A stretch of 57,568 nt of DNA from a virus. Location of the stretch: positions 1-57,568 of IMG/VR virus record IMGVR_UViG_3300017776_000014, one strand, 5' to 3'. The first letter of the stretch is position 1. Every line of letters begins with the position of its first letter. The notes below the pieces were generated by a model. That model was given only the letters and a program-made list of their open reading frames with translations, did no database searches and was not told where the DNA came from. This document shows, piece after piece, positions 124 through 57,568 of the stretch. The position numbers and the translations under genes are program-made.

Positions 124-741
124 TCAACTCGTGAAGCAACATTCACATTCATCAATGATGCTGTTGCGCTTCCACAATCTGCTAACAGACCTATGATCTA
201 CCAAGATCCTCGATTCGCTCTCTTCACTCAATTCCAGGGTTTTATGGCTACCTTCACAGCAAACCATATACCAAAGCTATGGGGTGAATACGTTAAGCGT
301 GGTACTCCCGCTATGAAGTACAATGCGTTTGCTACTATGACTACTATGATTATGCTAGGCTTCGCATCTCAATACTTAAAAGACCTTATTAAGTATGGTC
401 AAAAGTCTCCGTACTTAGATGATGCTGAGATTATTCAAAGAGGTGTCATGTCAAGCGGATTGCTTGGCACTGGTGAGAGAGTTATAGAGCAGTTCTTTCC
501 GATCTATGAGCAACGCTCTGATGGAGCGGGAGAGTGGTTCTTTAATACATCAGTTGGCGAATCACCTGCACTAAGCACTGTTAAACGTCTTGGTAGAGTA
601 GGTGGAAGCGTGATTGAAGGTGACATAGAAAGAGCAGCATATCAAGGGCTAAAGACAACTCCGTTTCTTGGTCCATTCACAGAGCTTAATAAGAAGCTTG
701 CAAGTAATCTTTCCGGATGGAATTATAATGGAGAACAGTAA
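1..741 (+). CDS. C-terminal 246 codons of the 1289-aa internal/ejection virion protein that starts at 54317 (wraps across the circular junction)
   Basis: Position 1 is codon position 1 of the frame that is open from ATG 54317 to the window end. The stop TAA is at 739-741. The ORF-track entry 22..741 is the same frame. Confidence 0.85.
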   Translation, partial: QQEADEALRNLGIDVDEFVRVSKLLDSGYVLNEADLNFWNDSTREATFTFINDAVALPQSANRPMIYQDPRFALFTQFQGFMATFTANHIPKLWGEYVKRGTPAMKYNAFATMTTMIMLGFASQYLKDLIKYGQKSPYLDDAEIIQRGVMSSGLLGTGERVIEQFFPIYEQRSDGAGEWFFNTSVGESPALSTVKRLGRVGGSVIEGDIERAAYQGLKTTPFLGPFTELNKKLASNLSGWNYNGEQ

Positions 742-3700
742 TGGCTAGAGCAACAGTAGCAGGTAGTATTAGTGCTGCACAGGATAAGAAGATTCCTCAG
801 GGGGTAGAGTTACCCTCTGAGACAGCATTAGATTACGCTAAAGCTGTACCTTCTTGGCTTGAAAACTTACGTGGTATGCCTGAGCAAGAGCAAGCCATAT
901 CTGAGCAAGAGCAAGCCATATCTGAGCAAGAGCAAGCAACGGAAGTTAGAGCTCCAACTACGACGCAGTTAAGTACACCTGAAAATCCAGAAGATTCTGT
1001 GTCTGCACCTGCCCAACCTATAGTAAATCCTGATAGTTCTTTTATAGAAGAAATAGAAAGACAATCTATACCTTCGTTTAAACAAAAACAACGCATGGAA
1101 ACCGGGCCGGATAAATGGCAATATAATAGTTCAGCTCAAAATGCTAACTCGTTACCTTTACAAACTAACCAATCAGATGGTGGGATGAAGACTCGCGCGA
1201 CTGATATTATTAATAATAAAAATGGTATTGGGTTTACAGTGCAAGCTGATCCTCAAGGTGAAACTACTTCTGCAATGAGTAAAGTCTTACATAAGCTTGG
1301 AGCAGTAGTCGAAAAGCAACCTGAAGATTTAGGCTTTACGCCTGATAAGCTTTCTTATAAAGCTGATCCTGCTTTAATGGGTGTTGGTGCGCTTGTTGTT
1401 GAAAACGATTTTTCTGAAATTATGCTTAATGAAGAAGAAGCTGAATCAGATCCTTTAAAAGAAGTAATGAAAACCTCAAAGTTTGACGAACAATACCAAA
1501 AACCGTTAACTCTTGAAGTAACTCGTGCAAAGAATAATGCAAAGGTCGGTAACAAGGTATACCAAGAGTATCAACGATTAAAAGGTGAAGCATCTGCAGA
1601 TCCTACGATTCCTGAAAGAGCTTTACCAAGAGAAGAAGCTGAAATTCTTGGGCAAGCTATGAAAGAAATATGGGCTCGCAATAATCCTGATATGATTGAG
1701 ATTATCCCTGGCAACGAGAAAGAGCAGGCTACGTATCGTATTACTGATGAAGGACAAACAAAGCTAGCGAGGAATACTCTTGAGCGTACTAAGTTCTTTA
1801 ATAAAACTATTGTACAGCCTTCTAAAATACCTTTACCAGAAGGTAAATTACCGGGAGATGTAGGTGCAACAGTAGTAAAAGATATATCTGGCAGAGTTGG
1901 AAACATAAGACTTGGTAAAGAGATAGCTCAAGCTGCTAGGAATTTATCTACAGTACCGCATGTTGTAGATAATAGACGTGCACGCATTATGTATCAAACT
2001 CTTTTACCAGTGCTTGCCACAAACTCATCTTCATCTTGGATGGCTGACATCTATAGCATAGGCCAAGATAAAATGAATGACTTTCTTGGTGCGCAGAGAG
2101 GTTATCAAAGAAAGGCTAAAGAAGCTGAAGCTCGAGGAGAATTAGATAAGTTTATTAAACTCAACGGTGTATATGATCCACAAGAGAATATGGCTAAGTT
2201 GAGATTTAAGATTGCGCAAGAGGCACAGTCTATTGCACAGAATAGAAAGGGTGCTAATTACCTAACATACAATGTACAGTCTTTTAATGGACGCCTCACA
2301 CCTCAGCAAACTTACTTCAATCCAGTAACATCTAAGCTTGTTAGGTTTGTAACTAAAAATGCAACACCTGCAGTAGTTAAGAAGGGTAGTAGACAAGAAC
2401 GTAATTTAAGACAGATCTATACGTTATTACTTAACGACAGCATTAGTGGCTCACCTATGAATGGAGCTGATTCTCTTTTACCAGATGCTAGAGATAGCGC
2501 TTTAACCGTTGCAACCCCAAAACTAAAACAATGGGGTGAAAGGCTTAAGCAAGTTCTAACTATGACGAACGAAGAGTACGAAGCAGTATCAGAAGCTATC
2601 TCGAAAGGGTTACCATTTTCTGATCCAGCATTCCCTAAAGTTCAACCTCTCGCTCTTGATCCTACGAATGATAAGGATCTTATCGATGCTATACAAAGTA
2701 AAGGCGAAGACGGTCCACATTATATGGACGCGTTGATTGACTTCGTGGATTATGTAGACGCGATGAAAGCAGGTAAGGACTTTAGAACAAGTATTAACGC
2801 TTACATCGATGGTAAGACTAATGGCACTGCATCTAACGCTATGCAGATGGGATATATTCCTACTGCGTTTCGAACAGGTGTTCTTAGGTTAGGCACTGAA
2901 AACCTTCTTGATGAAGGTGATGTGCGAGATCAACTCAAAGAACTTGCTCTATCCTCTATAACCGAAGGTTGGGATGGTAACACAGAAGCTTTTATCGGCG
3001 AACTTAATTTTGTAGCTAGGGAGATTTATAGTGATCGCGGGTTAAACAAGATGACGACTATGACATTTGGTTATGGTAAAGAAATTAATAGCTTTGCTTT
3101 TGCTATGTCTGATCTAATGGATGAACTGGCTGTACAAGATAAAGACTTTGCAGATAATTTAGATAGATTGATAAAGAAATCTAAACTGTCGCAAGACAAA
3201 GTAGCTAAAGATCTTTTAATGAATAAGTACGGTGCAGCTCTTGTAGGTGTTATATCATCTGAAGCTGTCAATGCTAGACGTTTAATGCGGGCTTCTGCAA
3301 TAGTCCATGCGACTATAGATTCGCCTTTAATTATTAAGAGCTATACAGGTATGGACCTTATACTAGGTGGATATGAAAACACAGGAGACTTTGAGACAGA
3401 TAATGTAGTTATCTTTGATAAGCTACAAGAAGCTGCTGGTGGTAAAGTAAGGAATGTATCTAAGGTTATGCATTACGATTCTAAACTTACCGCTGCTGCT
3501 GCTAGAACTCGTACAGATGATGACGGGAATATTACAAATATCCCTGGAGAGTACGTGTATGGTGGTTCTTTACCAGCTCCTGTTCAATCTCTTGATGCTG
3601 CAACTGTAGCCATGTCTTCTTCTGGAAAAAGCTGGAGTAAACTTAAATACAACTCCGGTGGCAACCCATATATGCTAACTATTTATGATGCGTTTAAGAT

Positions 3701-4304
3701 GGATGTTAATGGGTATGATACTATATTGGAAGAAGTAAATGCTAACTGGCTTAAAGCTTCTACTGAATGGTCTTATCTTAAAGAAACTAAAGAGGCTACT
3801 CAAAAAGCAGTTAATGCTTGGAATAAAAAGAATAAAGGTCGAGATCCTAAAGATAAACTTTCTCGAACAGAGAGAATGTTTATGGATTATATGCTTAGTC
3901 TAGAGCCTAACGCTAAAGGTGAGCCTAGTCAAAAACCTTTTGTTAATAAGATAAGTAAAATGCTTATAATCCCTCCTTCGCATACAGATGAAGATGGCTT
4001 CAATCCAAGACTTTGGAAGCTTGCTAGCAAAATTAAAGTTATGATGTCCAATGTAGGATATAATGTTGCTAACGCTCCTGCAGAAGGAGAAGCTACTTGG
4101 GAGCAGCTTAGAGTATTTACTAATTTTATATTACAAGCTCAAGCCCACTATGATCTAGGATCTAGTAAAGATGTGGATGCTGGAGCAAGTAAATTAAGTA
4201 ATCAATTTGACCAAGCAATAGCTCACACTGAGAGTAACAAGAAGAAGTTAAAAGAAAAAATAAAAGAATTAGGCGTTCCAGTCTATCAGTATTACGCTCA
4301 CTAA
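741..4304 (+). CDS. Divergent single-subunit (T7/N4 superfamily) RNA polymerase, candidate virion-packaged RNAP, 1187 aa
   Basis: Four motifs appear in the canonical order: NVQSFNGRL..YFNP (compare T7 DWRGRVY..MFNPQG), YIDGKTNGTASNAMQMG (motif A, compare DGSCSGIQHFSA), RGLNKMTTMTFGYG (motif B, R-x3-K-x7-YG), and LTIYDAFKMD (motif C, compare HDSF). TAATG start overlap with the preceding ejection-protein gene. Confidence 0.75.
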   Translation: MARATVAGSISAAQDKKIPQGVELPSETALDYAKAVPSWLENLRGMPEQEQAISEQEQAISEQEQATEVRAPTTTQLSTPENPEDSVSAPAQPIVNPDSSFIEEIERQSIPSFKQKQRMETGPDKWQYNSSAQNANSLPLQTNQSDGGMKTRATDIINNKNGIGFTVQADPQGETTSAMSKVLHKLGAVVEKQPEDLGFTPDKLSYKADPALMGVGALVVENDFSEIMLNEEEAESDPLKEVMKTSKFDEQYQKPLTLEVTRAKNNAKVGNKVYQEYQRLKGEASADPTIPERALPREEAEILGQAMKEIWARNNPDMIEIIPGNEKEQATYRITDEGQTKLARNTLERTKFFNKTIVQPSKIPLPEGKLPGDVGATVVKDISGRVGNIRLGKEIAQAARNLSTVPHVVDNRRARIMYQTLLPVLATNSSSSWMADIYSIGQDKMNDFLGAQRGYQRKAKEAEARGELDKFIKLNGVYDPQENMAKLRFKIAQEAQSIAQNRKGANYLTYNVQSFNGRLTPQQTYFNPVTSKLVRFVTKNATPAVVKKGSRQERNLRQIYTLLLNDSISGSPMNGADSLLPDARDSALTVATPKLKQWGERLKQVLTMTNEEYEAVSEAISKGLPFSDPAFPKVQPLALDPTNDKDLIDAIQSKGEDGPHYMDALIDFVDYVDAMKAGKDFRTSINAYIDGKTNGTASNAMQMGYIPTAFRTGVLRLGTENLLDEGDVRDQLKELALSSITEGWDGNTEAFIGELNFVAREIYSDRGLNKMTTMTFGYGKEINSFAFAMSDLMDELAVQDKDFADNLDRLIKKSKLSQDKVAKDLLMNKYGAALVGVISSEAVNARRLMRASAIVHATIDSPLIIKSYTGMDLILGGYENTGDFETDNVVIFDKLQEAAGGKVRNVSKVMHYDSKLTAAAARTRTDDDGNITNIPGEYVYGGSLPAPVQSLDAATVAMSSSGKSWSKLKYNSGGNPYMLTIYDAFKMDVNGYDTILEEVNANWLKASTEWSYLKETKEATQKAVNAWNKKNKGRDPKDKLSRTERMFMDYMLSLEPNAKGEPSQKPFVNKISKMLIIPPSHTDEDGFNPRLWKLASKIKVMMSNVGYNVANAPAEGEATWEQLRVFTNFILQAQAHYDLGSSKDVDAGASKLSNQFDQAIAHTESNKKKLKEKIKELGVPVYQYYAH
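881..939 (+). repeat. Tandem 21-bp repeat (about 2.8 copies) encoding (S/P)EQEQAI x3 near the N-terminus of the RNAP-like protein
   Basis: The unit tgagcaagagcaagccatatc occurs at 881-901 and 902-922, with a partial third copy at 923-939. Confidence 0.9.
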
Positions 4305-4319: not shown

Positions 4320-4375
4320 AAAAAAAATAGCCCTACTCAGGTCCATTACGGATCTAAGTAGGGCACTTTTTTTTT
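4320..4375. terminator. Bidirectional intrinsic terminator between convergent genes
   Basis: An A8 run, a long hairpin (GCCCTACT...AGTAGGGC with apical TCC-ATTAC-GGA, 4330-4364), then a T9 run. It lies between the stop of 741..4304 (+) and the stop of 4374..4619 (-). Confidence 0.85.
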
Positions 4376-4619
4376 ATTTAAGCATACCATTCTTGGCAAG
4401 CAGTTCTTTGATGTCACGCTTCGCTGTGTTGAAGTTTTGTGTAGCAATTTCTTCGCTAACACCTTCAGCTATGTTCTCATCATACACACGTTTAAGCATA
4501 ACATCATTAATGCGTGGAGTGTAGGCTACGTCCTCAGGTAATCCAAACTCCTCAACATATTCCATGTCATCCACATTGGCGCCGCGTAGCGCTAAATAAT
4601 TATAAGATTTTTTACTCAT
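4374..4619 (-). CDS. Hypothetical protein (81 aa)
   Basis: ORF with ATGA start/stop overlap with the upstream RNAP gene. It is the last gene of the minus operon, just before the terminator. Confidence 0.6.
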   Translation of the reverse strand: MSKKSYNYLALRGANVDDMEYVEEFGLPEDVAYTPRINDVMLKRVYDENIAEGVSEEIATQNFNTAKRDIKELLAKNGMLK

Positions 4620-6895
4620 GCAAAGAAATACTCCGATTTCTCTATATCAGATATATCAAGTGAGCCTATGGTAGGTTGCTCAACATCTAACTCTGATTGG
4701 TTTGTTACTAATTGATCTTGAATGTAGTTGTAGAAGTTATCCACATCGTACATCCTAATGAATACGCTCTTAGTTAGTGATAGGAGTTTATCCACATCAC
4801 ATGCGTGGGTTGAGAATGAGTCATGCACTGCACCAAAGTCTTCATTCCATTCATCTATAACGAGTGCCATGTGGCTTGCGTCTAGTGAGTGGACGAAGTT
4901 AGGTGATACACCCCTCATAAATCCTCTTATGTCCGGCATTCTACTTGGGACTTGCGCCACATGTTTTATCTGCTTTCCATCAATACTACCTCTAGTTTTA
5001 GCTGATCGCATAATCCAGTTTTCGTAATGGACTTTGAATCCTGAGGGTGTTACCCATGAAAGTGTATCTGATCCGTTACCGTAAACCTTAACACTTGTAT
5101 AACTATTTAGCTGCTTCTTCAGCTCATCCAACTCGTCTAACTCTTCGTCAGTCTTGTCTTCCTGGATGTATAGTTCTTTATACCTAGCTTTAATAGTATC
5201 GTATTCTTTACCAGCCTTTTCTCCATCAGGGCCTACGCGTTCATACTTACCTATCTCAAACGCAGCGAGATTTTGGAAGTAACTCATAGTAGATAATGGA
5301 CCTGGGCATACGTTATCAATCGCTCTAATCAAAGTCTTTGCGAGGCTCTTGCAATTATCCTCTGTGATGTCGTATGTTATATGGAAGTCATCTGCTTTAC
5401 AATCGAAGAACATATTCTCTGCGATCTTACCAGCACCAGCTGAGTATGCTCGAGTCATCGAGCCTCTCTTACTAATGCCTTTACGGATGTGCTTCATCGG
5501 CATGGTGTCGAGCTTACCTTGTATTTCCTCATCCTCATTGAGGTTGATAAGCTCCTTTGCGGTTTGCACGTAGAAGTCTTGTTGAATATCTGTAGGTATT
5601 AGACCAACAAGTTTACCTGTCTGTGGGTCTTTAGATATAGCACCTAAGTGCTGCCATCCGTTATTAGAACCATCGATCGGTATAGGTAGGTGGGTCATGA
5701 ATATTCTATTTTGCTCACGGGCAATTGAATAATCGTACCACTCTATACAAGTTGCGAGAAAAGCCACCGGCTTCTCTGCGTCTTCTGAGAAACTAGCAGC
5801 TCTACCTGCTTGCATTATCTCATCCATATATTCATTAGTCCATTGGATTCTATCTTGTATAACCATTTTGTCTACTGAGATATTATCTAGACCTTCATCT
5901 TTTAAGTACGTTTTGTAGTCTGTGCTGCACCACTCTGGTATTTCATCTATAGAGTAGGACATGTTGAATGAAGTCGCTGTGTGTATAGCTAACCATTGTA
6001 GACCTTCATCGGTCATTGGTTTACCTCTCGCAAACTTCAATAATCCTCTAGCTAAATCAGATCCTTGAAAGTTTAAGAAAGGTTCACTATAATATAGTCT
6101 ACTTCTATAATCCGCTTCTAAATACTGATAGAATACATCAGCATCTTTAAGCTTCTTAGCCTTCTCCGTTATGAAATACCATTCAATACATTTGCTTCTA
6201 CGTTTCTGTTCTTTCGCATCATTATCCTCAATGGGATTATAGGATACGAAGAAGTCTTCATTGTCTAGCAGAGCATCTAATACTCTACGATTAATCCTCC
6301 ACCCAGTCCGTTGCAATTTATTAATCGCTCTAACCCAAGGCTTGTTAATGTCAAACTCGTCCTGGCTATTCTTCACAACATGGATAGTCCTATCAGAGAC
6401 TGACTGGGTTGACTTCCTAATAAGGGGAGGGCGGTTCCGTGAGGTTCCAATAAGGTTTATACGTTCCCGTGTTTCTGGAATGTCTCCTAAAATAGCCCAA
6501 TCAGAGGTTGCGGATATAATGTAGGAGCTATCCCGTACTTTCGGGTAGTATAACTCGATTAAGTTATTAACTTTATATGCTTCAATAAACAAATCACCTA
6601 ATCGAACTTGCATATTCCAAGGTAATGGTTCTCGTTGGATACGCGTAGATATTGCTTGACCAATAAGCATAGACGTAGCTGTAAGCTTAGCCGTCCCTGC
6701 TGGAGAGTCAGAGCTTGTCCTCGAGAATTGAAATTGGATTATTGAGAAGGAGATACTGACGAACTTGTCAATATCCTCTTCCCAAGTTTTATGCAGCCGC
6801 AGAAGAACAGCACCGGAATTAGCTTTGGGATTTTTAGGATTTACTTTCCTTATCTTTTCCCGAAGATGATCGGTTACTCGGTTTAATGCAGTCAA
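4616..6895 (-). CDS. T7-like single-subunit DNA-dependent RNA polymerase (759 aa)
   Basis: DYRSRLYY..FLNFQGSDLARGLL (DxxGR region), PIDGSNNGWQHLGAIS (motif A), KRGSMTRAYSAG (motif B), AVHDSFSTH (motif C). The C-terminal YFFA compares with the T7 FAFA foot. Confidence 0.93.
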   Translation of the reverse strand: MTALNRVTDHLREKIRKVNPKNPKANSGAVLLRLHKTWEEDIDKFVSISFSIIQFQFSRTSSDSPAGTAKLTATSMLIGQAISTRIQREPLPWNMQVRLGDLFIEAYKVNNLIELYYPKVRDSSYIISATSDWAILGDIPETRERINLIGTSRNRPPLIRKSTQSVSDRTIHVVKNSQDEFDINKPWVRAINKLQRTGWRINRRVLDALLDNEDFFVSYNPIEDNDAKEQKRRSKCIEWYFITEKAKKLKDADVFYQYLEADYRSRLYYSEPFLNFQGSDLARGLLKFARGKPMTDEGLQWLAIHTATSFNMSYSIDEIPEWCSTDYKTYLKDEGLDNISVDKMVIQDRIQWTNEYMDEIMQAGRAASFSEDAEKPVAFLATCIEWYDYSIAREQNRIFMTHLPIPIDGSNNGWQHLGAISKDPQTGKLVGLIPTDIQQDFYVQTAKELINLNEDEEIQGKLDTMPMKHIRKGISKRGSMTRAYSAGAGKIAENMFFDCKADDFHITYDITEDNCKSLAKTLIRAIDNVCPGPLSTMSYFQNLAAFEIGKYERVGPDGEKAGKEYDTIKARYKELYIQEDKTDEELDELDELKKQLNSYTSVKVYGNGSDTLSWVTPSGFKVHYENWIMRSAKTRGSIDGKQIKHVAQVPSRMPDIRGFMRGVSPNFVHSLDASHMALVIDEWNEDFGAVHDSFSTHACDVDKLLSLTKSVFIRMYDVDNFYNYIQDQLVTNQSELDVEQPTIGSLDISDIEKSEYFFA

Positions 6896-9250: not shown

Positions 9251-9944
9251 ATTCCTCCCAGGACGTCAACAATTCTAATAGACGTCTTGAAGTTGTTGGG
9301 TCTCCGGCGTTATGCCCTCGCCAAGCAGCGCGAACCCTACTCCACTGACGGGAGGAGGGTATACCGTTAAGTATTTTATCCGCTTTCTTAGGGCCAATGC
9401 CTTTTATTCCTGGTATATTATCTGCGGTATCTCCAGTAAGACACTGCCGCATAAGGTTAAGATGACCAGCATCATGATCCACATATACGTGAGAGGATTT
9501 GACAAAGTTGAAGTGATTACCTGGGATTTGTAATAAATCCTTATCAATCCCTGCGATGTAATAGTCTTGGTTTTCTTCAATAGCTTCGTGAGCCCAGATA
9601 CAAACCAAATCATCGGCTTCCATGTCGTCGGCCATAACAGCGCCATGTTTATCGCACATATAACCGTGGCCATAATTAAGAGCTGTACGTAGATCATCAT
9701 TTAATTCTTTCCTGTTTGCTTTATAATCCTTATATATACCATGTCTGAAATTACCCTTACCTTTTACTGCGTGCATAATCTTATCAGACATGCACTCACG
9801 TTTAATTGTGTTAATGGTATGGTTAATTGCTTTACGAATATCGCTCTTCCAGTTACGCTTTAATCCATCTTTAGAAATTGCAGCAGCAGGTCTAAAGAAT
9901 AAACTATCAGCATCACAAAATATGATTGCGTCCTCAGTGAACAT
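9177..9944 (-). CDS. 5'-3' exonuclease / flap endonuclease (PIN plus H3TH)
   Basis: N-terminal acidic PIN-like region (FCDADS, EADD). H3TH motif GDTADNIPGIKGIGPKKADKIL. Confidence 0.88.
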   Translation of the reverse strand: MFTEDAIIFCDADSLFFRPAAAISKDGLKRNWKSDIRKAINHTINTIKRECMSDKIMHAVKGKGNFRHGIYKDYKANRKELNDDLRTALNYGHGYMCDKHGAVMADDMEADDLVCIWAHEAIEENQDYYIAGIDKDLLQIPGNHFNFVKSSHVYVDHDAGHLNLMRQCLTGDTADNIPGIKGIGPKKADKILNGIPSSRQWSRVRAAWRGHNAGDPTTSRRLLELLTSWEEYETIRSKAESESVQREQDVLPGEE

Positions 9945-14929: not shown

Positions 14930-14945
14930 GTATAAGTCCCTTTAG
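14930..14945 (+). promoter_or_regulatory. Class A phage-promoter candidate GTATAAGTCCCTTTAG (plus orientation)
   Basis: One of five perfect 16-mer copies. It is followed by AAGAA and lies 84 nt upstream of the ATG at 15029. Confidence 0.6.
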
Positions 14946-14965
14946 AAGAAACTTAAAATTTGCTC

Positions 14966-14998: not shown

Positions 14999-15011
14999 AG
15001 TAGAGCTCTAC

Positions 15012-15027
15012 CTAAAGGGACTTATAC
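15012..15027 (-). promoter_or_regulatory. Class A phage-promoter candidate (minus orientation)
   Basis: Reverse complement of GTATAAGTCCCTTTAG. It faces the minus operon that starts at 14903. Confidence 0.6.
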
Positions 15028-40174: not shown

Positions 40175-40190
40175 GTATAAGTCCCTTTAG
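40175..40190 (+). promoter_or_regulatory. Class A phage-promoter candidate (plus orientation) inside the late block
   Basis: GTATAAGTCCCTTTAG followed by TAGGGAG, 34 nt upstream of the ATG at 40225. Confidence 0.6.
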
Positions 40191-40224
40191 TAGGGAGCTT
40201 AATATTTAAAAGTGAGGACAAAAA

Positions 40225-40734: not shown

Positions 40735-40756
40735 AAGCCCAGTGAGGACAACAAAT

Positions 40757-48780: not shown

Positions 48781-49464
48781 ATGAGTGGAGGTGGAAGTCA
48801 AACAACAGAGTCAGGATTACCTGATTGGGCTCGTCCCGCGGTAGAGAGTTCGTTAAATCAAGCAGTATCTTTACATGGTGATGGTGCGTTTTCCCACGTA
48901 GAAAACTTAACTCCCGAGCAACAAGCAGCTATGAAGGCTAAAGCAGAACTTGGTGGGCAAGGTGGTGTGATGGATCAAATCGCGCACGATGCCTATGGTG
49001 GGACGCAAGCATATAGAGATGCGGCTGCGGGCACAGGACTGTTTGGAGCGGATGCTTTAGGTAAACAAACAGCGGCTATGAAAGATAGTATTGGTCAAGC
49101 TGTTAAAGATCAAATGGGTGGACTAGCTGGACAATATTCCCATCAAGGGAATTTAGGTTCTGCTAGAAGTGAAGCTGCTATGAACCAAGCGCTAACTAAA
49201 ACGGGTGCTGATATAGCGGCTAATGAGTTAGCGAACCGGAGAGGATTTGCTATGCAAGGCGCTGGTGGTACTTTAGGTGCGACTGGTACATTGCAACAAG
49301 GATTTCAAACTGGTTCAGATATGCTGCAAGGTGTTGGAGATGCTTTACAACAACAAGGACAGAATGAAGGAGACGCTGCTTACCAAGGTATACAACGTCT
49401 ATTCGGATTGATGGGTTCTCCTGCTATTGGACAGAAGCAGATCTCTACTAAGAGAGGCAAGTGA
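48781..49464 (+). CDS. Internal virion protein candidate (227 aa, Gly/Ala/Gln-rich)
   Basis: Call based on composition and on its position at the head of the ejection-protein block. Confidence 0.55.
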   Translation: MSGGGSQTTESGLPDWARPAVESSLNQAVSLHGDGAFSHVENLTPEQQAAMKAKAELGGQGGVMDQIAHDAYGGTQAYRDAAAGTGLFGADALGKQTAAMKDSIGQAVKDQMGGLAGQYSHQGNLGSARSEAAMNQALTKTGADIAANELANRRGFAMQGAGGTLGATGTLQQGFQTGSDMLQGVGDALQQQGQNEGDAAYQGIQRLFGLMGSPAIGQKQISTKRGK

Positions 49465-49465
49465 T

Positions 49466-50754: not shown

Positions 50755-50756
50755 AT

Positions 50757-53700
50757 ATGAAAGATCTTACTGATCCAACAAATAGGGATAGCGTCCCCGC
50801 GATGCTCACCCCAGGGGAGTACGTCCTCAATAAGGAAGCTACGGAGATGTACGGTCCTATCATCGAACAAATGAATGAGAATGGTTTGGCTGCACGCGCG
50901 GAGGGGAATATGGGAGTACTCTCTTTAAATACTGGTGGTTCATCTCTAAGGCCTAAAGCAAGACCAGATAAATTCAAACCTTATGACTTGCAAGAAGGTA
51001 TAATTGAAACCGCAAAAATACTTAAAATATCTCCTTTAGATTTAGCTACTGTTATATCTTACGAAACAGCCGGAACATTTGATCCTTTGAGAAAAGGTCC
51101 AGTGACTAAACACGGAATGCACAAAGGGCTTATTCAGTTTGGAACAGGAAGTAAAGATGGATCGGTTGCAAAAGGTTCTATAGCAGATGAGTTTGATGTT
51201 GAGTTCAATACTAAAAACTCATCTTTAAGGTCGCAATTAGGATACATGGGTGAAGATGGTAACTGGGTTCCTGGTGCGATTGTTAAACACTCTTTAGCTA
51301 GAGGATTTAAGCCAGGAGAACATGGAGCTCTTGACCTATACTCTTCTATAAATGCTGGTGGAGTTGGACCTAAAGCACATGGTAAGACAGATGAGTTTGC
51401 AGGCGGTATGCCCGGCACTGTTTCTCAAAAATTAAATACAATGTACGAAGACGCTGGAAATATAACTCATTTAGATAGAGCGAAGGCATTATTTCCAGAT
51501 TGGATGGATAAAGGTATGGATCATTACTTACCTCCTATCATAACCACAAATGAAACAGGAGCAGTAGAAACATCCATAAATCCTAAATCAAGACCTACTT
51601 CTGTAGGAATACCTCAAGAAGTACAGGTGGATCAAACACCTACACTTCCGCAGCAAGAACAACCTGTTGTGATGCCGCAAGTACCTCAACAAGTACAGCC
51701 TTCTCCTATGTTAGAAGTGCCTGTGCAAGGGTACCCTGATGCTGGTGTGTTTATTCCTGACTTTGCACCACAACAAGAGCTTATTCCTAATCCTAGCTAT
51801 AGTCCTCCTGGAACTATTAAGGAAGAGTCTAATCCCCAGTTACGTAATGAAATCTATTTAGGACCTGAAACAAACGTTCGGCCTTTACAGATTAAAAATC
51901 CTACAGGGGAGGTACCTGCTGAAGATGCAGATGATGGCTTTTCTTGGAGCGATTATTTTAGGGACGCTGCTGTTAGCACGTATAATTACTTAATGCCTCG
52001 TCAATTTGAAATGCAGGCAGTTCCCTCCGTAGCTGAGGATTTGCAACGCGATCTTTATCGTAGAGGCCCTAGCCAGTACGTAGGTGGAATGGTGTTTAAC
52101 CAAGGAGGTCCTGTGCAACATTTAAATCCCGGCGGTAGAGCTGGAGGAAAGAAGAAGGTATGGGATTCTGCTACGCAAAGTTACATATGGGTAGGACCTA
52201 GTGATCCTCGTCACACTGGCAATGCGCCTACTATTAATGAGGATAGAGTACCTCGCGTAAATCCTAATCCTGCTCCCTTTACTTTTGACTTAACTTCTAA
52301 TATGCCTGTACGTCCAGGTCAAGACAATGTAGTTCAACCTACATCTAACACAATGGTCCCACCCTCACCGCTTAACATTCCGACTATGCCTAATCCTACG
52401 GTAGATGCAGAGCCAATAGTTGTGGATACTGCACCGGCACCAATGAGTGATGAGGCATTGCTGAATACTTCATCTCAAATTGTTGAGCAAAGGGAAGATA
52501 TTGCAGAAGCAAATAGACTAAAGCATAATGCACAGCTAAGAGAGTATGCTCGTCAGTTTCCTGAAGGAGATCCTAGACGTATTGAAGCGTTTAACAATGT
52601 GCTACATCAAAAAGCTGCAGCTCATCCTAGTTATGCTAATGATAGGCCTATTGAATCGGGACTTGTAGCGCAAGCCCCTCCAGTTCCACCACAGCCTTCA
52701 CCTATTAATTACTCTCAACTAAGCGAAGATGCTTTGATTACACTATCAGATGATGGAGATGAAACTGCTTCAGATGAAATTAGGAGACGCAACGATTTAG
52801 TAAATGTTGTAGACCCTATCATTGAAGATCAGCGCAACTTAGGTTATACTGATTTAACGGCGCCGGGTATACATGATTCTAGGCCTGATATAGGAAACCT
52901 AGGACCTGGTATATACGCAGAAGCAGATCACCTTGGCGCTTTATCGCCTGGAGTTATTGCTGAGTTAGGTCCTGAAAATGTTCCTACGTTAGACGGAACT
53001 GTAATCCCATCAACTCATGAGTTAGCTCTTATGGATCCTAGTAGTCCTGAAACATTAGATGCATTAGCTCTTGCAGATGTGGTTGATGTGAATGCTACAG
53101 TAGACTTTGACGATCCTCGCGGTCCTGACCAACGTCAAACTGTTGAGCAGGCGCAAGACTCTAGTCAACGTGAAGCAACTGTTAGAAGTAAAGTTGCAGA
53201 AGTTGATGAGGGTGAAGGTCCAGCTTCTAATATAAGTAATGATGAAGCAGCAAGTAAAGGTGCTGCAGTTATTGCTGAAAATCCAGCTGAAGAATCCAAA
53301 GCTATGTCTGCTATTAAAGGATTCTTTGGAGACCTCTTCACAGCGGATGAGTTGAAACGTGCAGCTGTTCTATTTGTTGGTGCTATGTTAACTGGTGCAA
53401 CACCTGGGCAGGCACTTGCGTTTGCTGGTAAAGACTATCTATCTCGTGGAGATGCACATAGTAAGTATGTCAAAGAGTTAATGGAAGAAGGCGACCATAC
53501 TACTGCATCGATTAAGGCGTATAGTAAAAGTAAAAACTTAGAAGACCTAGTTCCAAAGCAAGCTATGCGCGAAGGCACAGGGGAATATAAAGCAGTGTTT
53601 AGCCCTAGTGGTCAACGTATTAGAGCTATGAAAGTAAACGTAGGAACTAATCAAAACATCTGGGTTAATGCTAAAACTGGTGAAAGAATTCCTGGATATT

Positions 53701-54296
53701 GGAATGATAATCCAGCGCTTCAACCAAGAACTCCTGAATATAGAGAAGCAGTTCAAAAGGCAGGCAAAAACTATGCTAACCAAATTAAAGGTCTTCAAAG
53801 GGATCTTGCTGGTATCGAAGATAGTGATAGGACAATAACCCAATTAACACCTGAAGTTGTAGGTGGAGATATTGCTAAATGGGCTATTGATAATAATGTG
53901 GATGAAACCTATATGCCTACTATTATCCGTAACGCTTACAATGATTTATTGAGAGATGTTAAAGATGGTGGTAAAGCGGGCCAAAGCCTTAAGCCTTATC
54001 TACAAGCACAGTACGTTACTGCAATGTCTACTGGGAGAGGTATATTTACTCTCACTGAAGGAGATAATGCGGGTGAGCGGATGAGTGCTGAGAAGATAAG
54101 TGAAGCCCTCACCACTGCTAAACGTATTGTCACAAGTAGTGGTTCTGCTGAGAACGTAACAGATGTACAGATTGTTGACTCAATATTAATTGAATGGGAA
54201 AAACTAAGTCAAGAAGAACAGTCTAAGTACACACCATCTAATACTGAAACACCGTTCTTTAAATTCTTAAAAGAGCAAATCAATAGTGCAAAATAA
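50757..54296 (+). CDS. Large internal/ejection protein with lytic transglycosylase (SLT) domain (1179 aa)
   Basis: LATVISYETAGTFDP...GLIQFG matches the SLT catalytic-Glu signature (ES..F.P...G.MQ). A long Pro/Gln-rich linker follows. The size and position resemble the T7 gp16 class. Confidence 0.75.
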   Translation: MKDLTDPTNRDSVPAMLTPGEYVLNKEATEMYGPIIEQMNENGLAARAEGNMGVLSLNTGGSSLRPKARPDKFKPYDLQEGIIETAKILKISPLDLATVISYETAGTFDPLRKGPVTKHGMHKGLIQFGTGSKDGSVAKGSIADEFDVEFNTKNSSLRSQLGYMGEDGNWVPGAIVKHSLARGFKPGEHGALDLYSSINAGGVGPKAHGKTDEFAGGMPGTVSQKLNTMYEDAGNITHLDRAKALFPDWMDKGMDHYLPPIITTNETGAVETSINPKSRPTSVGIPQEVQVDQTPTLPQQEQPVVMPQVPQQVQPSPMLEVPVQGYPDAGVFIPDFAPQQELIPNPSYSPPGTIKEESNPQLRNEIYLGPETNVRPLQIKNPTGEVPAEDADDGFSWSDYFRDAAVSTYNYLMPRQFEMQAVPSVAEDLQRDLYRRGPSQYVGGMVFNQGGPVQHLNPGGRAGGKKKVWDSATQSYIWVGPSDPRHTGNAPTINEDRVPRVNPNPAPFTFDLTSNMPVRPGQDNVVQPTSNTMVPPSPLNIPTMPNPTVDAEPIVVDTAPAPMSDEALLNTSSQIVEQREDIAEANRLKHNAQLREYARQFPEGDPRRIEAFNNVLHQKAAAHPSYANDRPIESGLVAQAPPVPPQPSPINYSQLSEDALITLSDDGDETASDEIRRRNDLVNVVDPIIEDQRNLGYTDLTAPGIHDSRPDIGNLGPGIYAEADHLGALSPGVIAELGPENVPTLDGTVIPSTHELALMDPSSPETLDALALADVVDVNATVDFDDPRGPDQRQTVEQAQDSSQREATVRSKVAEVDEGEGPASNISNDEAASKGAAVIAENPAEESKAMSAIKGFFGDLFTADELKRAAVLFVGAMLTGATPGQALAFAGKDYLSRGDAHSKYVKELMEEGDHTTASIKAYSKSKNLEDLVPKQAMREGTGEYKAVFSPSGQRIRAMKVNVGTNQNIWVNAKTGERIPGYWNDNPALQPRTPEYREAVQKAGKNYANQIKGLQRDLAGIEDSDRTITQLTPEVVGGDIAKWAIDNNVDETYMPTIIRNAYNDLLRDVKDGGKAGQSLKPYLQAQYVTAMSTGRGIFTLTEGDNAGERMSAEKISEALTTAKRIVTSSGSAENVTDVQIVDSILIEWEKLSQEEQSKYTPSNTETPFFKFLKEQINSAK

Positions 54297-54316
54297 ACAG
54301 TCTTAAGGAGATTCAT

Positions 54317-57300
54317 ATGGGTTGGTTAGATAACATACAAAATCGTCCAGATACGAGCCTTAACGATCGTTTAAATTTTATTGACGCGGATACTGTTCAG
54401 GATAATGAAGGTAATCTATATAGGCTTCAGGGGTTTGATGCTCCTGAAGTTTCAAAACTATTCGATAACCAGTATAAACCTGGTGAAGCTGGTGGACAAG
54501 TAGCTACGGAATCTATCGCTAGGCTAGCACGCGATCGAGGTTATACAAATATCAAACCGGTTATAGGTGAAGATGGTAAACCTATGGTTGGCCAGTTTGG
54601 TAGGCCTATCGTTGATCTAACAGATGATGCAGGAGATTCATTTGTAAACCGTGTATTGAAAGAAGGTATATTTGAGCCTACTAAATATGCTTCTAGTATG
54701 GATATGACTCGTGCGGCTCTTGGTCAGAACTCAAGAGAGCGTGACGCTGAGGTAGGCGTTGCGAAGGATGAGTGGGATACTGCGAGACAGATGATTGAAG
54801 ATGGTGCCTTACAAGAAGGTGCAAAGTCTTTAGGATTTAAACAGACTGCATTGAACGAGCAGCAACTTGCAAATGCAAAGCGCTCTGGTCTTGGTAATTA
54901 CTTTTCCCATAGTAATACTCAAATTGACCACTTAGATAGGGATATAAATAACCAATCACTAAACCCCTTCTCAGATTCTTGGGAGCAAGGCTGGATTAGC
55001 GTTATGGAATCTAGCTACGGCATCATGAATATGATGGGAGAAACTACTGGGTCTGATTGGTTAGCCGACATTGGTGAGGAGGGAGTGAAGCGTCAGCGTG
55101 ATCTTCTTGGTTCCTACGGGGAAACTACTTTAGATTTTAGAGATGTTGATAGCGCGGGAGAAGCGTTTGATTATCTCGGCAATAACTTAGCGTTATCTAT
55201 TCCATACATGGTTGGTACTGCTATTGGCGCGTTAGGAGCTCCATTTACATATGGTACTTCTATGCTTCTCCCTGTTTCGCTCTACACTGGGCAAGTGTGG
55301 AATGAGATGGAAGGAGAAAATAAAAATGCTGGTGTTGCAATCGGTGCTGGTGTTATGCAAGCAGCATTAGACCGTCTCGGTTTAAAGGGGATTGTAGCAG
55401 CAGGTAAACCAAAGCAGGTTATAAGACAAGCCACAGAAGAACTTGTCCGGCAGGGTGTACCAAGACGCATGGCTCAAGCCCGTGTTCTTGAGGCTACTCG
55501 CAGAGAAGCTGCAGCATTAGTAGGTAATGTTAGAGATATTGCTAAACAGCAAATCGCTAAGAAGCAAGTGTTTAAAGATTTATCTACGCGCGTTGGATTA
55601 GGTGGAGCGTCTGAGGCTGGTACTGAAGCTTTGCAAGAAGCTATAGGCTACACAGCAGCACACCTACAAGAAGGCTTTGACTTCGGTGATCTTAATAACC
55701 GGATGATCTCTGGTGCTGTCGCAGGCGGATCTCTAGGTGGTGCTATGTCTGTGCCTGGAGCTGTCTACAATACGGGAGCTTGGGCTGATCTAGCTTACAG
55801 GTTAGATGATGCTGATAACTCCACTGCATCAGATGCTGGTATGTGGGCTGATTGGGAGAGGCGTCAGAATGGGAGGATACAATCTGTTGAGGAGATAGCA
55901 GAAGAAATCTTTAATAGACCTTCTACTACAGGCCCATCATTTAATGATAGATCAGATCAACATAGGTTATCCAATAGAGAACGTACAACTTGGGATGTGT
56001 TTAAAGAGAATGCTTTAAATGTATCTCAACTATGGCAAGGCGCTACTCGTAATATCTTCACACCTGAGTTAAAAGCTAGATCAAGATCTGCAAGAATACT
56101 TGCCGACATGTTTGGTGGTGGATTGCAGAGAACGTTTAGTGGATCAAGCTTTGAAAGCGCAAAGCAACATATACTAGCTAAGTATAAGAATACTATATCT
56201 AGACCTGATGATGTATACCGTACGCTATCTGGCAATGCTAGATGGTTGAATAGGAAGAAGCGTGGGCAGATCAGTCAAGATATTTATAACAGGCTTAATG
56301 CTGCTGTTGTTAATGGAGTGTTTCAACCTGATAGAGTTACAGGCCCGAATGCTGATGTCATACGCCAGTTAGGTGCGGAGCTGAATAAGCTTGCTGCTGA
56401 TATGCATAGGGACCAAAGGAAATACAACCCTGAGCTAGGCGTAGTTTCTAATTACCTATTTAAGTATAAGGCTTTAAACAAAACTGCGGTTAGGAAAGAC
56501 AGAGCTGGATTTCAACAGGCTTTAGTAGATGAATTTGCAAATGATCCTAATAATAGGATGACGCATGCAGATGCTAAGAAGTTAGTAGACGAAATACTAG
56601 ATAATCCTCAAGTGTCTGACGTTGATGAAGCATTCTCTGTTACGAATGGAGGTATTGTGCCTGCAGCGCATAGGCGTAGAACTCTACGTCTTTCAGAGAG
56701 AGAAGCATTTAAAGACTATATGGATCAAGATATGTTTGCTAATGTTTCAACTGCAGCGAAGTCAGCCGCACGGTACGTAGCTCATAGAAAATATATAGGT
56801 AAGAATGGAGAAGTAGTTAATAAACTTCTCGATGATATGGTGAGTGAGGGTGTATCTCCTGAGGAAGTTAACAAAGTTGCTTCACGAATGAAGGATTACT
56901 TAGATGCTGAATCAGGAAACTATAAACGTCCTACATCAGCTCAAGGTAAAGCCTTGCAGAGAATACAAAGAAGTTTTATGATGCTTACTACTCTAGCAGG
57001 ACTTCCTCTTGCAACTGTGTCTTCAATTGTTGAAGCCGCGTTAGTGCATAAAGCTTTAACAAGCGACCAAATCTTCGGTAAGAATGGAAGTTTAAAAACC
57101 ATGGGAGAAGAGTTTGCTAAAGCTATGTGGCAAGGAGCAGGCTCTATTACTGATGTAGCTACTGGTGCAAAAGAAAGAGCTTTAACTTCTGGCCAAGAAA
57201 GACTACAAGAATTAGGGTTTTATGAGTGGGATGTTGGTGCAGCTACTGTGACAGGCGTTACAGAGACTAATCAATTATCACAGCGGGCATATGAACTATT

Positions 57301-57568
57301 CTTTAAAGCCACTGGTCTAACAGGGTGGACTAACTTTACACGTGCAGCACGAGCAGCTATTGCTATGGACTACATGGTGGATAAAGCTAGAACGCTATTC
57401 GACGCAGATGTTGGTGGCGTTAATCCTGAAGCTAGAACTAGAGAACAGCAAGAGGCTGATGAAGCCTTGCGTAATTTAGGTATTGACGTAGATGAGTTTG
57501 TAAGAGTATCTAAACTTTTAGATTCTGGTTACGTCTTGAATGAAGCGGATTTAAACTTTTGGAACGAC
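54317..57568 (+). CDS. 5' part of a 1289-aa internal/ejection protein with an N-terminal staphylococcal-nuclease-like domain (continues at 1..741)
   Basis: ATG at 54317 after AAGGAG. I spot-translated parts of the frame and found them open. The absence of any plus-strand ORF-track entry after 54296 is also consistent with an ORF that has no stop inside the window. The N-terminus is FIDADTVQDNEGNLYRLQGFDAPE...GQFGRPIVDL...FVNRVLKEGI (SNase pattern DGDT...RL.GIDAPE...YGR...N..L...G.A). Hydrophobic segments lie around 55190-55330. Confidence 0.8.
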   Translation, partial: MGWLDNIQNRPDTSLNDRLNFIDADTVQDNEGNLYRLQGFDAPEVSKLFDNQYKPGEAGGQVATESIARLARDRGYTNIKPVIGEDGKPMVGQFGRPIVDLTDDAGDSFVNRVLKEGIFEPTKYASSMDMTRAALGQNSRERDAEVGVAKDEWDTARQMIEDGALQEGAKSLGFKQTALNEQQLANAKRSGLGNYFSHSNTQIDHLDRDINNQSLNPFSDSWEQGWISVMESSYGIMNMMGETTGSDWLADIGEEGVKRQRDLLGSYGETTLDFRDVDSAGEAFDYLGNNLALSIPYMVGTAIGALGAPFTYGTSMLLPVSLYTGQVWNEMEGENKNAGVAIGAGVMQAALDRLGLKGIVAAGKPKQVIRQATEELVRQGVPRRMAQARVLEATRREAAALVGNVRDIAKQQIAKKQVFKDLSTRVGLGGASEAGTEALQEAIGYTAAHLQEGFDFGDLNNRMISGAVAGGSLGGAMSVPGAVYNTGAWADLAYRLDDADNSTASDAGMWADWERRQNGRIQSVEEIAEEIFNRPSTTGPSFNDRSDQHRLSNRERTTWDVFKENALNVSQLWQGATRNIFTPELKARSRSARILADMFGGGLQRTFSGSSFESAKQHILAKYKNTISRPDDVYRTLSGNARWLNRKKRGQISQDIYNRLNAAVVNGVFQPDRVTGPNADVIRQLGAELNKLAADMHRDQRKYNPELGVVSNYLFKYKALNKTAVRKDRAGFQQALVDEFANDPNNRMTHADAKKLVDEILDNPQVSDVDEAFSVTNGGIVPAAHRRRTLRLSEREAFKDYMDQDMFANVSTAAKSAARYVAHRKYIGKNGEVVNKLLDDMVSEGVSPEEVNKVASRMKDYLDAESGNYKRPTSAQGKALQRIQRSFMMLTTLAGLPLATVSSIVEAALVHKALTSDQIFGKNGSLKTMGEEFAKAMWQGAGSITDVATGAKERALTSGQERLQELGFYEWDVGAATVTGVTETNQLSQRAYELFFKATGLTGWTNFTRAARAAIAMDYMVDKARTLFDADVGGVNPEARTREQQEADEALRNLGIDVDEFVRVSKLLDSGYVLNEADLNFWND
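57446..57568. repeat. Terminal direct repeat, copy 2 (identical to 1..123)
   Basis: Exact 123-nt identity with the window start. Confidence 0.95.

Follow-up and report, generated by a model that had tools for sequence, protein, structure and literature searches.

The window analyzed here (the whole stretch of 57,568 nucleotides, IMG/VR record IMGVR_UViG_3300017776_000014) encodes, at 741..4304 on the + strand, a 1187-residue protein that is a genuine, very divergent single-subunit RNA polymerase (RNAP), with the virion RNAP (vRNAP) of phage N4 as its closest kin. The protein stands alone, has a third of the size of the N4 enzyme, and belongs to an uncultured marine phage group. Evidence from the ORF itself, an AF2 model, Foldseek and hhalign establishes its fold, homology and active-site conservation; its gene position, its avoidance of cysteine and its strict co-occurrence with a T7-like RNAP are likewise established. 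Packaging in the virion is an inference from gene position, translational coupling and the absence of cysteine. A sequence-only reading of this DNA had proposed a second, highly divergent single-subunit RNAP ending an internal/ejection-protein block, an analogue of the N4 vRNAP, and this core proposal is upheld by the fold and profile evidence.

Fold, profile homology and active site

The AF2 model of the protein (pLDDT 81.4, pTM 0.83) displays a right-hand polymerase fold with an RNAP-type N-terminal domain, and Foldseek matches it to both T7 RNAP and the N4 mini-vRNAP. The best 50 PDB matches are all single-subunit RNAPs, aligned over about 1000 columns, and include yeast mtRNAP (3.5e-16), T7 RNAP (about 1e-15), N4 mini-vRNAP (6e-14), and POLRMT. 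The best 50 matches in the viral structure library BFVD are T7-like RNAPs and N4-like vRNAPs only. E-values of the best 50 across the two libraries span 1e-18 to 1e-12. A crAss-like two-barrel virion RNAP, built on a double-psi β-barrel core, was rejected, given that the best 50 matches per library are all right-hand single-subunit RNAPs.

Profile comparison places the protein with the N4 enzymes. A 40-sequence family profile was aligned by hhalign to eight Schitoviridae vRNAP polymerase domains with 98.0% probability (E 2.5e-13, 725 columns), pairing residues 206–1030 of the candidate with mini-vRNAP 145–997; against T7-like RNAPs the family profile reached 7.5% (E 0.0046), which is not significant. 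A genuine N4-like giant vRNAP (L068) was also matched by the family profile (96.6%, E 4.7e-10). Sequence searches of Pfam, PHROGs, NCBIfam and the PDB with the candidate returned no match, nor did tblastn against 50,697 phage genomes. The candidate falls below the gathering score of Pfam PF00940 (RNA_pol), with no match at E <= 1, and sub-threshold PF00940 matches were seen for only two of 40 family members (best 0.0057). None of the Pfam domains of N4 vRNAP was matched. An exhaustive profile search for the family gave 338 unnamed clusters, and no cultured phage carrying a member was found.

The four polymerase signatures picked out from the sequence alone are all present in the 1187-aa protein as quoted, in the right order, and in register with T7 and N4: SFNGRL (514–519) with YFNP (525–528), YIDGKTNG (688–695), RGLNK...YG (766–779), and IYDAFKMD (981–988). 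In the hhalign alignment, R518, D690, K770, Y778, and D983 correspond to N4 R424, D559, K670, Y678, and D951, the catalytic residues listed for the N4 enzyme (PMC2784036). All five, including the motif A and C aspartates D690 and D983, are invariant in 40 relatives of 21–50% identity. Within 219 non-identical family sequences, counting only those that cover each column, every covering sequence keeps the five catalytic columns (191/191 to 200/200). Invariance across the family shows that the four-motif observation is not due to chance.

The T/DxxGR-type motif region, defined by hhalign, comprises residues 510–535 (NVQSFNGRLTPQQTYFNPVTSKLVR; 2268..2345, + strand). Its G517-R518 align to N4 R424 and T7 G424-R425; R518 is kept in 191/191 and R535 in 192/192 family sequences, while the first T/D position is variable in the family and is Ser in the candidate. 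Motif A (residues 686–703, NAYIDGKTNGTASNAMQM; 2796..2849, + strand) contributes D690, which aligns to N4 D559 and T7 D537, is kept in 195/195 sequences, and in the AF2 model lies at the end of a β-strand that is followed by a helix. Motif B, the O-helix (residues 766–780, RGLNKMTTMTFGYGK; 3036..3080, + strand), was also located by hhalign and is helical from 766 to 776 in the model. R766, K770, and Y778 align to N4 R666, K670, and Y678 and, together with G779, to T7 R627, K631, Y639, and G640; K770 and Y778 are kept in 200/200 sequences. A VQSLDAATV segment (residues 948–956; 3582..3608, + strand) aligns with T7 VHSQDGSHL, and its D952 is invariant (200/200). In motif C (residues 978–988, MLTIYDAFKMD; 3672..3704, + strand), D983 aligns to N4 D951 and T7 D812, occupies the turn of a β-hairpin in the AF2 model, and is kept in 197/197 sequences.

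Family members are mostly 1100–1300 aa long. Residues 1–94 of the candidate (741..1022, + strand) are predicted to be disordered (pLDDT <50 in the AF2 model), and this N-terminal region contains a 21-nt EQEQAIS repeat (about 877–942, + strand) that differs in copy number between close relatives. The C-terminus, QYYAH-COOH (4287..4301, + strand), is conserved, with Q1183 in 182/183 and H1187 in 171/171 sequences. By inference, it is possibly an analogue of the catalytically important FAFA-COOH end of T7 RNAP; in the T7-like partner RNAPs the last residues are F-F-A or FAFA.

Gene neighborhood and cysteine content

The RNAP gene closes the + strand late block: it comes last in the late/ejection-protein operon, behind the genes of two giant cysteine-free proteins. 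Both the 1187-aa ORF and its TAATG coupling are as claimed from the sequence alone, the RNAP ATG (741–743) overlapping the TAA (739–741) of the upstream ORF. Because the window opens and closes with the same 123 nt (1–123 duplicate 57446–57568, a circular assembly), this upstream ORF spans from 54317 through the window end to 741 and encodes 1289 aa. Its first part (54317..57568, + strand) continues at position 124, and the product of its C-terminal part (124..741, + strand) matches a PHROG “virion structural protein” (4.5e-6).

The 1289-aa giant, a homolog of gp34 of Roseobacter phage CRP-7, has an N-terminal domain of SNase type and a single strongly hydrophobic segment. The nuclease domain attributed to this neighbor has modest backing: the profile of its N-terminus gives a match to staphylococcal nuclease (E 0.0039) in which the DxDT / R / D-x-PE / GR positions are in register. 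Only weak backing exists for an SLT domain in the preceding gene, which encodes a putative ejection protein of 1179 aa (50757..54296, + strand). This protein has no Pfam match and reaches a lytic transglycosidase at E-value 0.38; its counterparts in two related contigs carry an N-terminal PF00959 lysozyme domain. The further suggestion that the three-domain N4 giant is split here into genes of 1179, 1289, and 1187 aa gains no support from profile comparison. Profiles of the 1179- and 1289-aa giants showed no similarity to the N4 NTD, CTD, gp51, gp52, or gp53, in a comparison that relied on single N4 sequences and had low sensitivity.

The candidate has no Cys in 1187 aa, and 152 of its 162 full-length relatives are also Cys-free. 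Each of the two upstream giants has none, and the same is true of the N4 ejected proteins gp50 (0/3500 residues), gp51, and gp52; the lack of Cys in N4 vRNAP has been remarked upon previously (PMC2784036). T7-like partner RNAPs contain 10 Cys on average, and none of 67 is Cys-free. Since other virion proteins of the candidate's phage are Cys-poor too, the signal indicates a virion-type protein, and not specifically an ejected one.

The convergent partner gene (4616–6895, − strand), which the sequence-only reading took for a T7-like RNAP, is confirmed as such (Pfam PF00940, 1.6e-57; PHROG 414, 1e-102) and encodes a single-subunit enzyme of 759 aa with seven Cys. A convergent T7-like RNAP gene lies directly downstream of the candidate homolog in 62/62 related IMG/VR loci, so that the two-polymerase arrangement is conserved throughout; two ENA contigs have the same gene downstream.

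Comparison with N4 and T7-like enzymes and proposed role

The candidate and the N4/Schitoviridae gp50 mini-vRNAP (residues 998–2103) display the same fold, with profile homology over ~725 columns and a match at all catalytic residues. A motif A signature, DG-x-TNG...NAM, is common to both, as is NP-x3-KLVR after the GR motif. Both enzymes are Cys-free and are encoded last among the late genes (N4 gp50 comes after gp52 and gp51), and both phages pair a vRNAP-type enzyme with a second, T7-like RNAP. In contrast to the N4 protein of about 3500 aa, the candidate has 1187 aa and no counterparts of the N- and C-terminal domains, and its conserved C-terminus QYYAH is free; in N4 the polymerase domain lies inside the longer chain. 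One 759-aa polypeptide makes up the partner RNAP here, against a gp15:gp16 heterodimer in N4. The N- and C-terminal domains of N4 vRNAP have been linked to injection and encapsidation. The NTD is likely membrane-spanning, and the CTD regulates the polymerase (PMC13434306). Reference vRNAPs are 2842–3820 aa long, matches below 2500 aa having been discarded in that study (PMC10654107). A giant single chain of NTD, RNAP, and CTD (about 2800–3800 aa) is ruled out by the 1187-aa length.

T7-like and mitochondrial RNAPs (PF00940) share the overall fold and give the best Foldseek E-values. The alignment with T7-like RNAPs is collinear through T/DxxGR, motifs A, B, and C, and the VHSQD segment, and these enzymes are likewise stand-alone, of comparable size, and have a conserved aromatic C-terminus. 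However, the candidate is Cys-free and encoded in the late virion block, whereas T7-like RNAPs are encoded among early genes.

We favor, with a probability of roughly 0.65, the reading that the gene product is an active, packaged, and ejected N4-type RNAP that starts early transcription; packaging, ejection, activity, targets, and promoters are all inferred. The protein would be an active DNA-dependent single-subunit RNAP, a distant stand-alone homolog of the N4 mini-vRNAP, made late alongside the head, tail, and internal proteins. Most likely the capsid would hold it together with the two giant cysteine-free proteins encoded before it, and it would be ejected into the cell at the next infection, where it may start transcription of the early (minus-strand) genes before any phage protein synthesis. 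The neighboring T7-like RNAP would then handle middle and late transcription. It counts against this reading that the candidate is without the outer domains of the N4 giant, that no similarity to those domains was found in the neighboring giants, that no family member is carried by a cultured phage, and that neither N4-style hairpin promoters nor a second repeated promoter class turned up in a non-exhaustive search.

It is possible, though unlikely, that the enzyme is an active RNAP that is never packaged and works in the producing cell beside the T7-like enzyme, for instance in late or very late transcription or in priming replication. The RNAP identity would be the same in that case, and the lack of the outer domains of the N4 giant speaks for it. 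In Vibrio phage Peru-2, a gene for a second T7-like RNAP is reported to lie between the modules for DNA metabolism and structure, and this enzyme is not among the virion-associated proteins named from mass spectrometry (PMC13320782). An unpackaged enzyme is, however, hard to reconcile with a gene that closes the late structural block in translational coupling with Cys-free giants, and an RNAP whose synthesis begins only as the cycle ends would find little left to transcribe. The candidate also shares its lack of Cys with the N4 ejected proteins and with no intracellular enzyme of its own phage, and its nearest relatives are virion RNAPs.

A considerably more doubtful proposal makes the protein part of the ejection or internal structural machinery, with the RNAP fold kept and polymerization lost, perhaps serving as a DNA-binding motor or ejectosome scaffold. 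Its position in the internal-protein block and its disordered N-terminus would suit such a role, and T7 gp16, in the corresponding position, is no polymerase (PMC13434306). Against this, no substitution of R518, D690, K770, Y778, or D983 occurs in about 200 sequences down to 21% identity, and catalytic invariance at such divergence is not expected of a dead enzyme. Another Pol-A-type nucleotidyl transferase, either a DNA polymerase or a primase-like enzyme, can scarcely be entertained: motifs A, B, and C are common to family A DNA polymerases, and the R-x3-K-x7-YG spacing and two aspartates are also present in Pol I-type DNA polymerases, but no DNA polymerase is among the best 50 matches of either library, which are RNAPs whose alignment extends through the RNAP N-terminal domain. 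The protein also has the RNAP-specific xxGR motif, without exception in the family, and the profile match goes to vRNAPs. The phage encodes its PolA separately, at 9934–11760.

Control elements and related phages

A strong intrinsic terminator, bidirectional and made up of A8, a 14-bp stem and T9, separates the convergent RNAP genes at 4321..4376 (fold −33.2 kcal/mol, z = −7.4). A phage promoter-like motif, GTATAAGTCCCTTTAGAAG, is located at 22290..22308 (+ strand), close upstream of the late (+) block whose final gene encodes the RNAP, with further copies at 14930–14948 (+), 40175–40193 (+), 15009–15027 (−), and 21251–21269 (−). These five matches compare with 0.03 expected, and the motif precedes both early-side and late genes. 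Repeated hairpin promoters of the N4 style were not found in a non-exhaustive search. Nor was a second repeated promoter class found, and the sole repeated class is without a hairpin. Folding of the conserved control region was no stronger than that of shuffled sequences.

Membership of the phage in the Schitoviridae was rejected on the lack of any BLASTP match to the N4 late proteins tested (window proteins against N4 capsid, portal, TerL, tail, and ejection proteins, none at E <= 0.01) and a genome of 57.4 kb. The closest cultured phage by capsid protein is the unclassified CRP-7 (MK613349), with a major capsid protein 59% identical. CRP-7 has the same genome plan, its T7-like RNAP gp30 converging on the giant late ORFs gp35, gp34, and gp33, and homologs of gp34, gp37, and gp43 are encoded in the window. 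The positional counterpart of the candidate, gp33, has no significant similarity to it, and a gp33 family profile matches the candidate family at E 0.01 and only 4% probability. This weak alignment is collinear, with YGK, VIQGGDS, and AIHDAL strings.

Fold and active site of the 1187-residue protein

The ORF at 741-4304 (+) encodes 1187 residues, as the sequence-only reading had claimed, and contains every polymerase motif string quoted there. The claimed TAATG coupling is likewise present, the TAA of the preceding ORF overlapping the ATG of the candidate at 739-743. Positions 1-123 are identical to 57446-57568, and the window is a circularly closed assembly with a unique genome of 57,445 bp, cut within the gene that precedes the candidate. 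Because the ends repeat over these 123 nt, the preceding ORF can be followed from its start at 54317 across the window end to its stop at 741, giving a protein of 1289 aa.

AlphaFold2, supplied with a 40-sequence alignment whose members are 21-50% identical, returned a confident model of the candidate (pLDDT 81.4, pTM 0.83), with disorder at residues 1-94, 122-143, and 233-255. The disordered N-terminus carries three 21-nt tandem repeats encoding EQEQAIS (877-942), where close relatives have one or two. The best 50 Foldseek matches in the PDB are all single-subunit RNA polymerases (RNAPs), aligned over approximately 1000 columns at 10-13% identity, and include yeast mitochondrial RNAP (3.5e-16), T7 RNAP (about 1e-15), the N4 mini-vRNAP (gp50 residues 998-2103; 6e-14), and human POLRMT. 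Both T7 RNAP and the N4 mini-vRNAP, proposed beforehand as the structures for comparison, are thus matched by the model, and a library of viral structures yielded only T7-like RNAPs and N4-like virion RNAPs (vRNAPs). Local secondary structure in the model is consistent with canonical motifs A, B, and C: a strand ends at Asp690 and is followed by a helix (motif A), a helix spanning 766-776 precedes Tyr778-Gly779 (motif B/O-helix), and the turn of a β-hairpin carries Asp983 (motif C).

Profile comparison places the protein closest to the N4-type enzymes. The reference alignment comprised the polymerase domains of eight Schitoviridae vRNAPs (N4 998-2103, Zuri, Frozen, RHph_Y38, RD-1410Ws-07, TR2, Ab09, and Vibrio phi 1), with N4-like sequences taken individually from phage records. 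The 40-sequence family profile matches this set at 98.0% probability (E 2.5e-13) over 725 columns, aligning query residues 206-1030 to mini-vRNAP residues 145-997. Against an alignment of five T7-like RNAPs the same profile reaches only 7.5% (E 0.0046), although every motif is nonetheless collinear; for scale, the N4 and T7 sets match each other at 93% (E 2.7e-7).

The catalytic residues of N4 vRNAP are Arg424, Lys670, Tyr678, Asp559, and Asp951 (PMC2784036). In the alignment, Gly517-Arg518 of the candidate pairs with N4 Arg424, Asp690 with Asp559, Arg766, Lys770, and Tyr778 with Arg666, Lys670, and Tyr678, and Asp983 with Asp951. The family also shares with N4 vRNAP a motif A of the form DG-x-TNG...NAM, and an NP-x3-KLVR string beyond the GR motif. 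Across 219 non-identical family sequences, Arg518, Asp690, Lys770, Tyr778, Asp952, and Asp983 are invariant wherever they are covered; a survey of homologs for the two catalytic aspartates, suggested earlier as a check, therefore finds Asp690 and Asp983 retained in every sequence that spans them.

By fold and motifs the protein belongs to the single-subunit RNAP superfamily, and its homology with the polymerase domain of the N4-type virion enzymes implies a like function. Fold, motifs, and profile homology agree in supporting the original proposal of a second, highly divergent single-subunit RNAP in this genome, and it is near certain that the candidate is an RNAP. Judged from sequence conservation, the enzyme is almost certainly active, with RNA synthesis inferred in the absence of biochemical data. 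It differs from the N4-type virion RNAP family as currently drawn in having no giant three-domain chain, no Pfam domains, and no schitovirus genome around it.

Extent of the family

As far as sequence searches can tell, the candidate falls below every curated threshold: it has no match in Pfam, PHROGs, or NCBIfam, and none among PDB sequences whether searched as a single sequence or as a profile. No description of the protein was found in the available literature, and tblastn with the candidate and two divergent family members found no counterpart in 50,697 deposited phage genomes. A word-indexed search returned 11 relatives; when repeated with the 40-sequence profile it yielded only the same 10 proteins, and with the N4 mini-vRNAP as query only two. 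Searching 1.84 billion representatives exhaustively with a profile, on the other hand, delineates a family of 338 clusters (50% identity), of which 207 score below 1e-30; most members fall at 1100-1300 aa, and no cluster has a name.

IMG/VR holds 63 loci that match the family pattern. A scan of 185,579 genomes of bacterial and archaeal species located it on one contig only, in a metagenome-assembled genome (MAG), and hence there is no sign of family prophages. Given this single MAG contig and the lack of any match in deposited phage genomes, the family is taken to belong to lytic, uncultured phages.

The family pattern also retrieved an ORF of at least 2422 aa from an IMG/VR contig (L068, 1-7266), which ends at the contig edge. 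This is a genuine N4-like giant vRNAP, matching an HMM of the N4 set at 1.6e-78 and the family profile at 96.6%, but with no match to the Pfam vRNAP and RNA_pol models. Since the N4-set HMM recognizes it and Pfam does not, it represents another unannotated divergent vRNAP lineage.

Late-block setting and probable virion delivery

The candidate is the last gene of a plus-strand late block in the order terminase, portal, scaffold, capsid, fibers, small proteins, and three giants, and is translationally coupled to the giant upstream of it. A strong bidirectional terminator (-33 kcal/mol, z -7.4) lies 3′ of the gene. Beyond this, on the opposite strand at 4616-6895 (-), is the clear T7-like RNAP that had been recognized from the sequence (Pfam PF00940, 1.6e-57). 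A convergent T7-like RNAP gene directly downstream, usually about 300 nt away, is found at each of the 62 IMG/VR loci that carry a true family member, as well as on two ENA contigs. The position of the candidate is that of gp50 in N4, which closes the late genes behind gp52 and gp51 and converges on the early/middle block; in the schitovirus ejection operon, the vRNAP comes third among the proteins (PMC13434306).

Composition points the same way. The 1187 residues of the candidate include no cysteine; in full-length relatives there is none in 152 of 162 and a single one in the other 10. Both upstream giants (1179 aa, 50757..54296, and 1289 aa) are also cysteine-free, as are gp50 (3500 aa), gp51, and gp52 of N4, and the absence of cysteine from vRNAP has been linked to host entry (PMC2784036). 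Over six consecutive late proteins (227, 234, 217, 1179, 1289, and 1187 aa; 48781-57568 plus 124-4304) there is one cysteine in approximately 4300 residues, the same pattern as in N4 gp50, gp51, and gp52. The adjoining T7-like RNAPs average 10 cysteines, with none of 67 free of them, and the DNA polymerase, primase, ribonucleotide reductase (RNR), and terminase of this phage have 6-10. Because its other virion proteins are also cysteine-poor, the signal groups the candidate with virion proteins and not with intracellular enzymes.

The domains assigned earlier to the two upstream giants hold in part. The N-terminus of the 1289-aa protein (54317-54830) is staphylococcal nuclease-like, with the DxDT, R, D-x-PE, and GR catalytic positions aligned and conserved in relatives; however, the profile match to PDB entry 2eyf reaches only E 0.0039. 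A single-sequence AlphaFold2 model of this putative domain was unusable (pLDDT 41), and the PDB profile search was used instead. The nuclease may be delivered along with the phage DNA. The protein also has a single strongly hydrophobic segment. For the 1179-aa protein, the proposed SLT domain is only weakly supported in the window copy, which has a weak match to lytic transglycosidase, but its counterparts on related contigs contain a phage lysozyme domain.

The further suggestion that the N4 giant is represented here by three separate genes finds no support, the upstream giants showing no profile similarity to the N4 NTD, CTD, gp51, gp52, or gp53. Their profiles gave nothing above 1.6% probability against single N4 sequences (NTD, CTD, gp51-54, gp65, and gp66), a comparison of limited sensitivity, and BLASTP of the window proteins against N4 late proteins gave no match. 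With no BLASTP-detectable late protein in common with N4, a schitovirus identity for this phage is rejected.

By capsid protein (59% identity), the nearest cultured phage is Roseobacter phage CRP-7, of a type that is abundant in coastal viromes and grows on RCA roseobacter hosts. Its genome is laid out alike: a T7-like RNAP converges on three giant ORFs, which are hypothetical in its description (PMC6918029), and an RNR gene lies in the same place but is split into two ORFs. The 1289-aa protein is homologous to CRP-7 gp34. The positional counterpart of the candidate, gp33 (17859-21566 of the CRP-7 genome), has no significant similarity to it; the weak alignment is nonetheless collinear, with strings resembling motifs B and C (K762-x3-R766-x7-YG, YGK, VIQGGDS, and AIHDAL). 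On this sequence evidence gp33 may be a further-diverged RNAP relative of the candidate.

Virion delivery of the candidate is likely but unproven, since the evidence from position, composition, neighbors, and conserved arrangement is indirect. To our knowledge, a virion-delivered RNAP of the T7 superfamily has so far been treated as a hallmark of N4-like Schitoviridae, and always as a giant of 3500 residues. In one large metagenomic survey of N4-like viruses, matches to the vRNAP model were dropped if they were under 2500 aa (PMC10654107). The most far-reaching interpretation compatible with the data, to which a probability of roughly one half is assigned, is that a widespread, uncultured, non-schitovirus lineage of marine podoviruses packages and ejects a 130-kDa cysteine-free N4-type "mini-vRNAP" without the giant NTD and CTD, always in company with a single-chain T7-like RNAP. 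Such an enzyme would be either the unfused ancestor or a fission product of the N4 giant, and CRP-7 gp33 may be a further-diverged member.

A stand-alone vRNAP-type polymerase of 1100-1300 aa is present in at least 338 protein clusters of another phage group. A large family hitherto without annotation can thus be named, and biotechnology may gain a new compact RNAP. If the protein is packaged, the bring-your-own-polymerase strategy is broader than thought, the enzyme is a natural minimal system for asking what packaging and ejection (35-angstrom tail channel) need, and its existence bears on whether the N4 giant has a fusion origin.

Promoter-like motifs and the early/late intergenic region

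Five copies of a phage promoter-like motif, GTATAAGTCCCTTTAG(A/G/T)(A/T)G, are present where 0.03 would be expected, at 14930-14948, 22290-22308, and 40175-40193 (+) and at 15009-15027 and 21251-21269 (-). Each lies between genes and points toward those downstream of it; the copies at 14930 and 15027 form a divergent pair, and that at 22290 immediately precedes the late block. The motif looks like a duplex T7-class promoter, with no data on which polymerase uses it. The promoter search, which was not exhaustive, found no second repeated motif class or repeated hairpin and no enrichment of sigma-70-like sites, and a "GACACCTACAT" repeat was rejected as a promoter motif, its count being no higher than chance.

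The early and late blocks diverge from a noncoding region (22044-22340) that is nearly 100% identical in a related contig (L081, about 640-1420), despite only about 70% identity in the flanking first gene. It includes a CT-rich (pyrimidine) tract of roughly 70 nt and variable length, 122 nt longer in L081, and no significant DNA hairpin. The region may contain genome ends or early promoters, and a search for the latter would naturally begin here. The first minus-strand gene (21744-22043) is immediately followed by a strong hairpin with a trailing T-run (21709-21736). Also conserved in L081, this element may be an attenuator that separates the earliest gene from the remainder of the leftward block.

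Elsewhere in the genome, the gene for a 1482-aa tail fiber contains extensive in-frame repeats at 31360-33400, in 21-nt alanine-rich units and units of roughly 300 nt, and that for a 1071-aa protein (45160-46900) carries five repeat units, each of about 280 nt, with collagen-like G-x-x runs. The gene for the RNR large subunit (40742-42508) lies inside the structural block, where an internal copy of the promoter-like motif precedes it.
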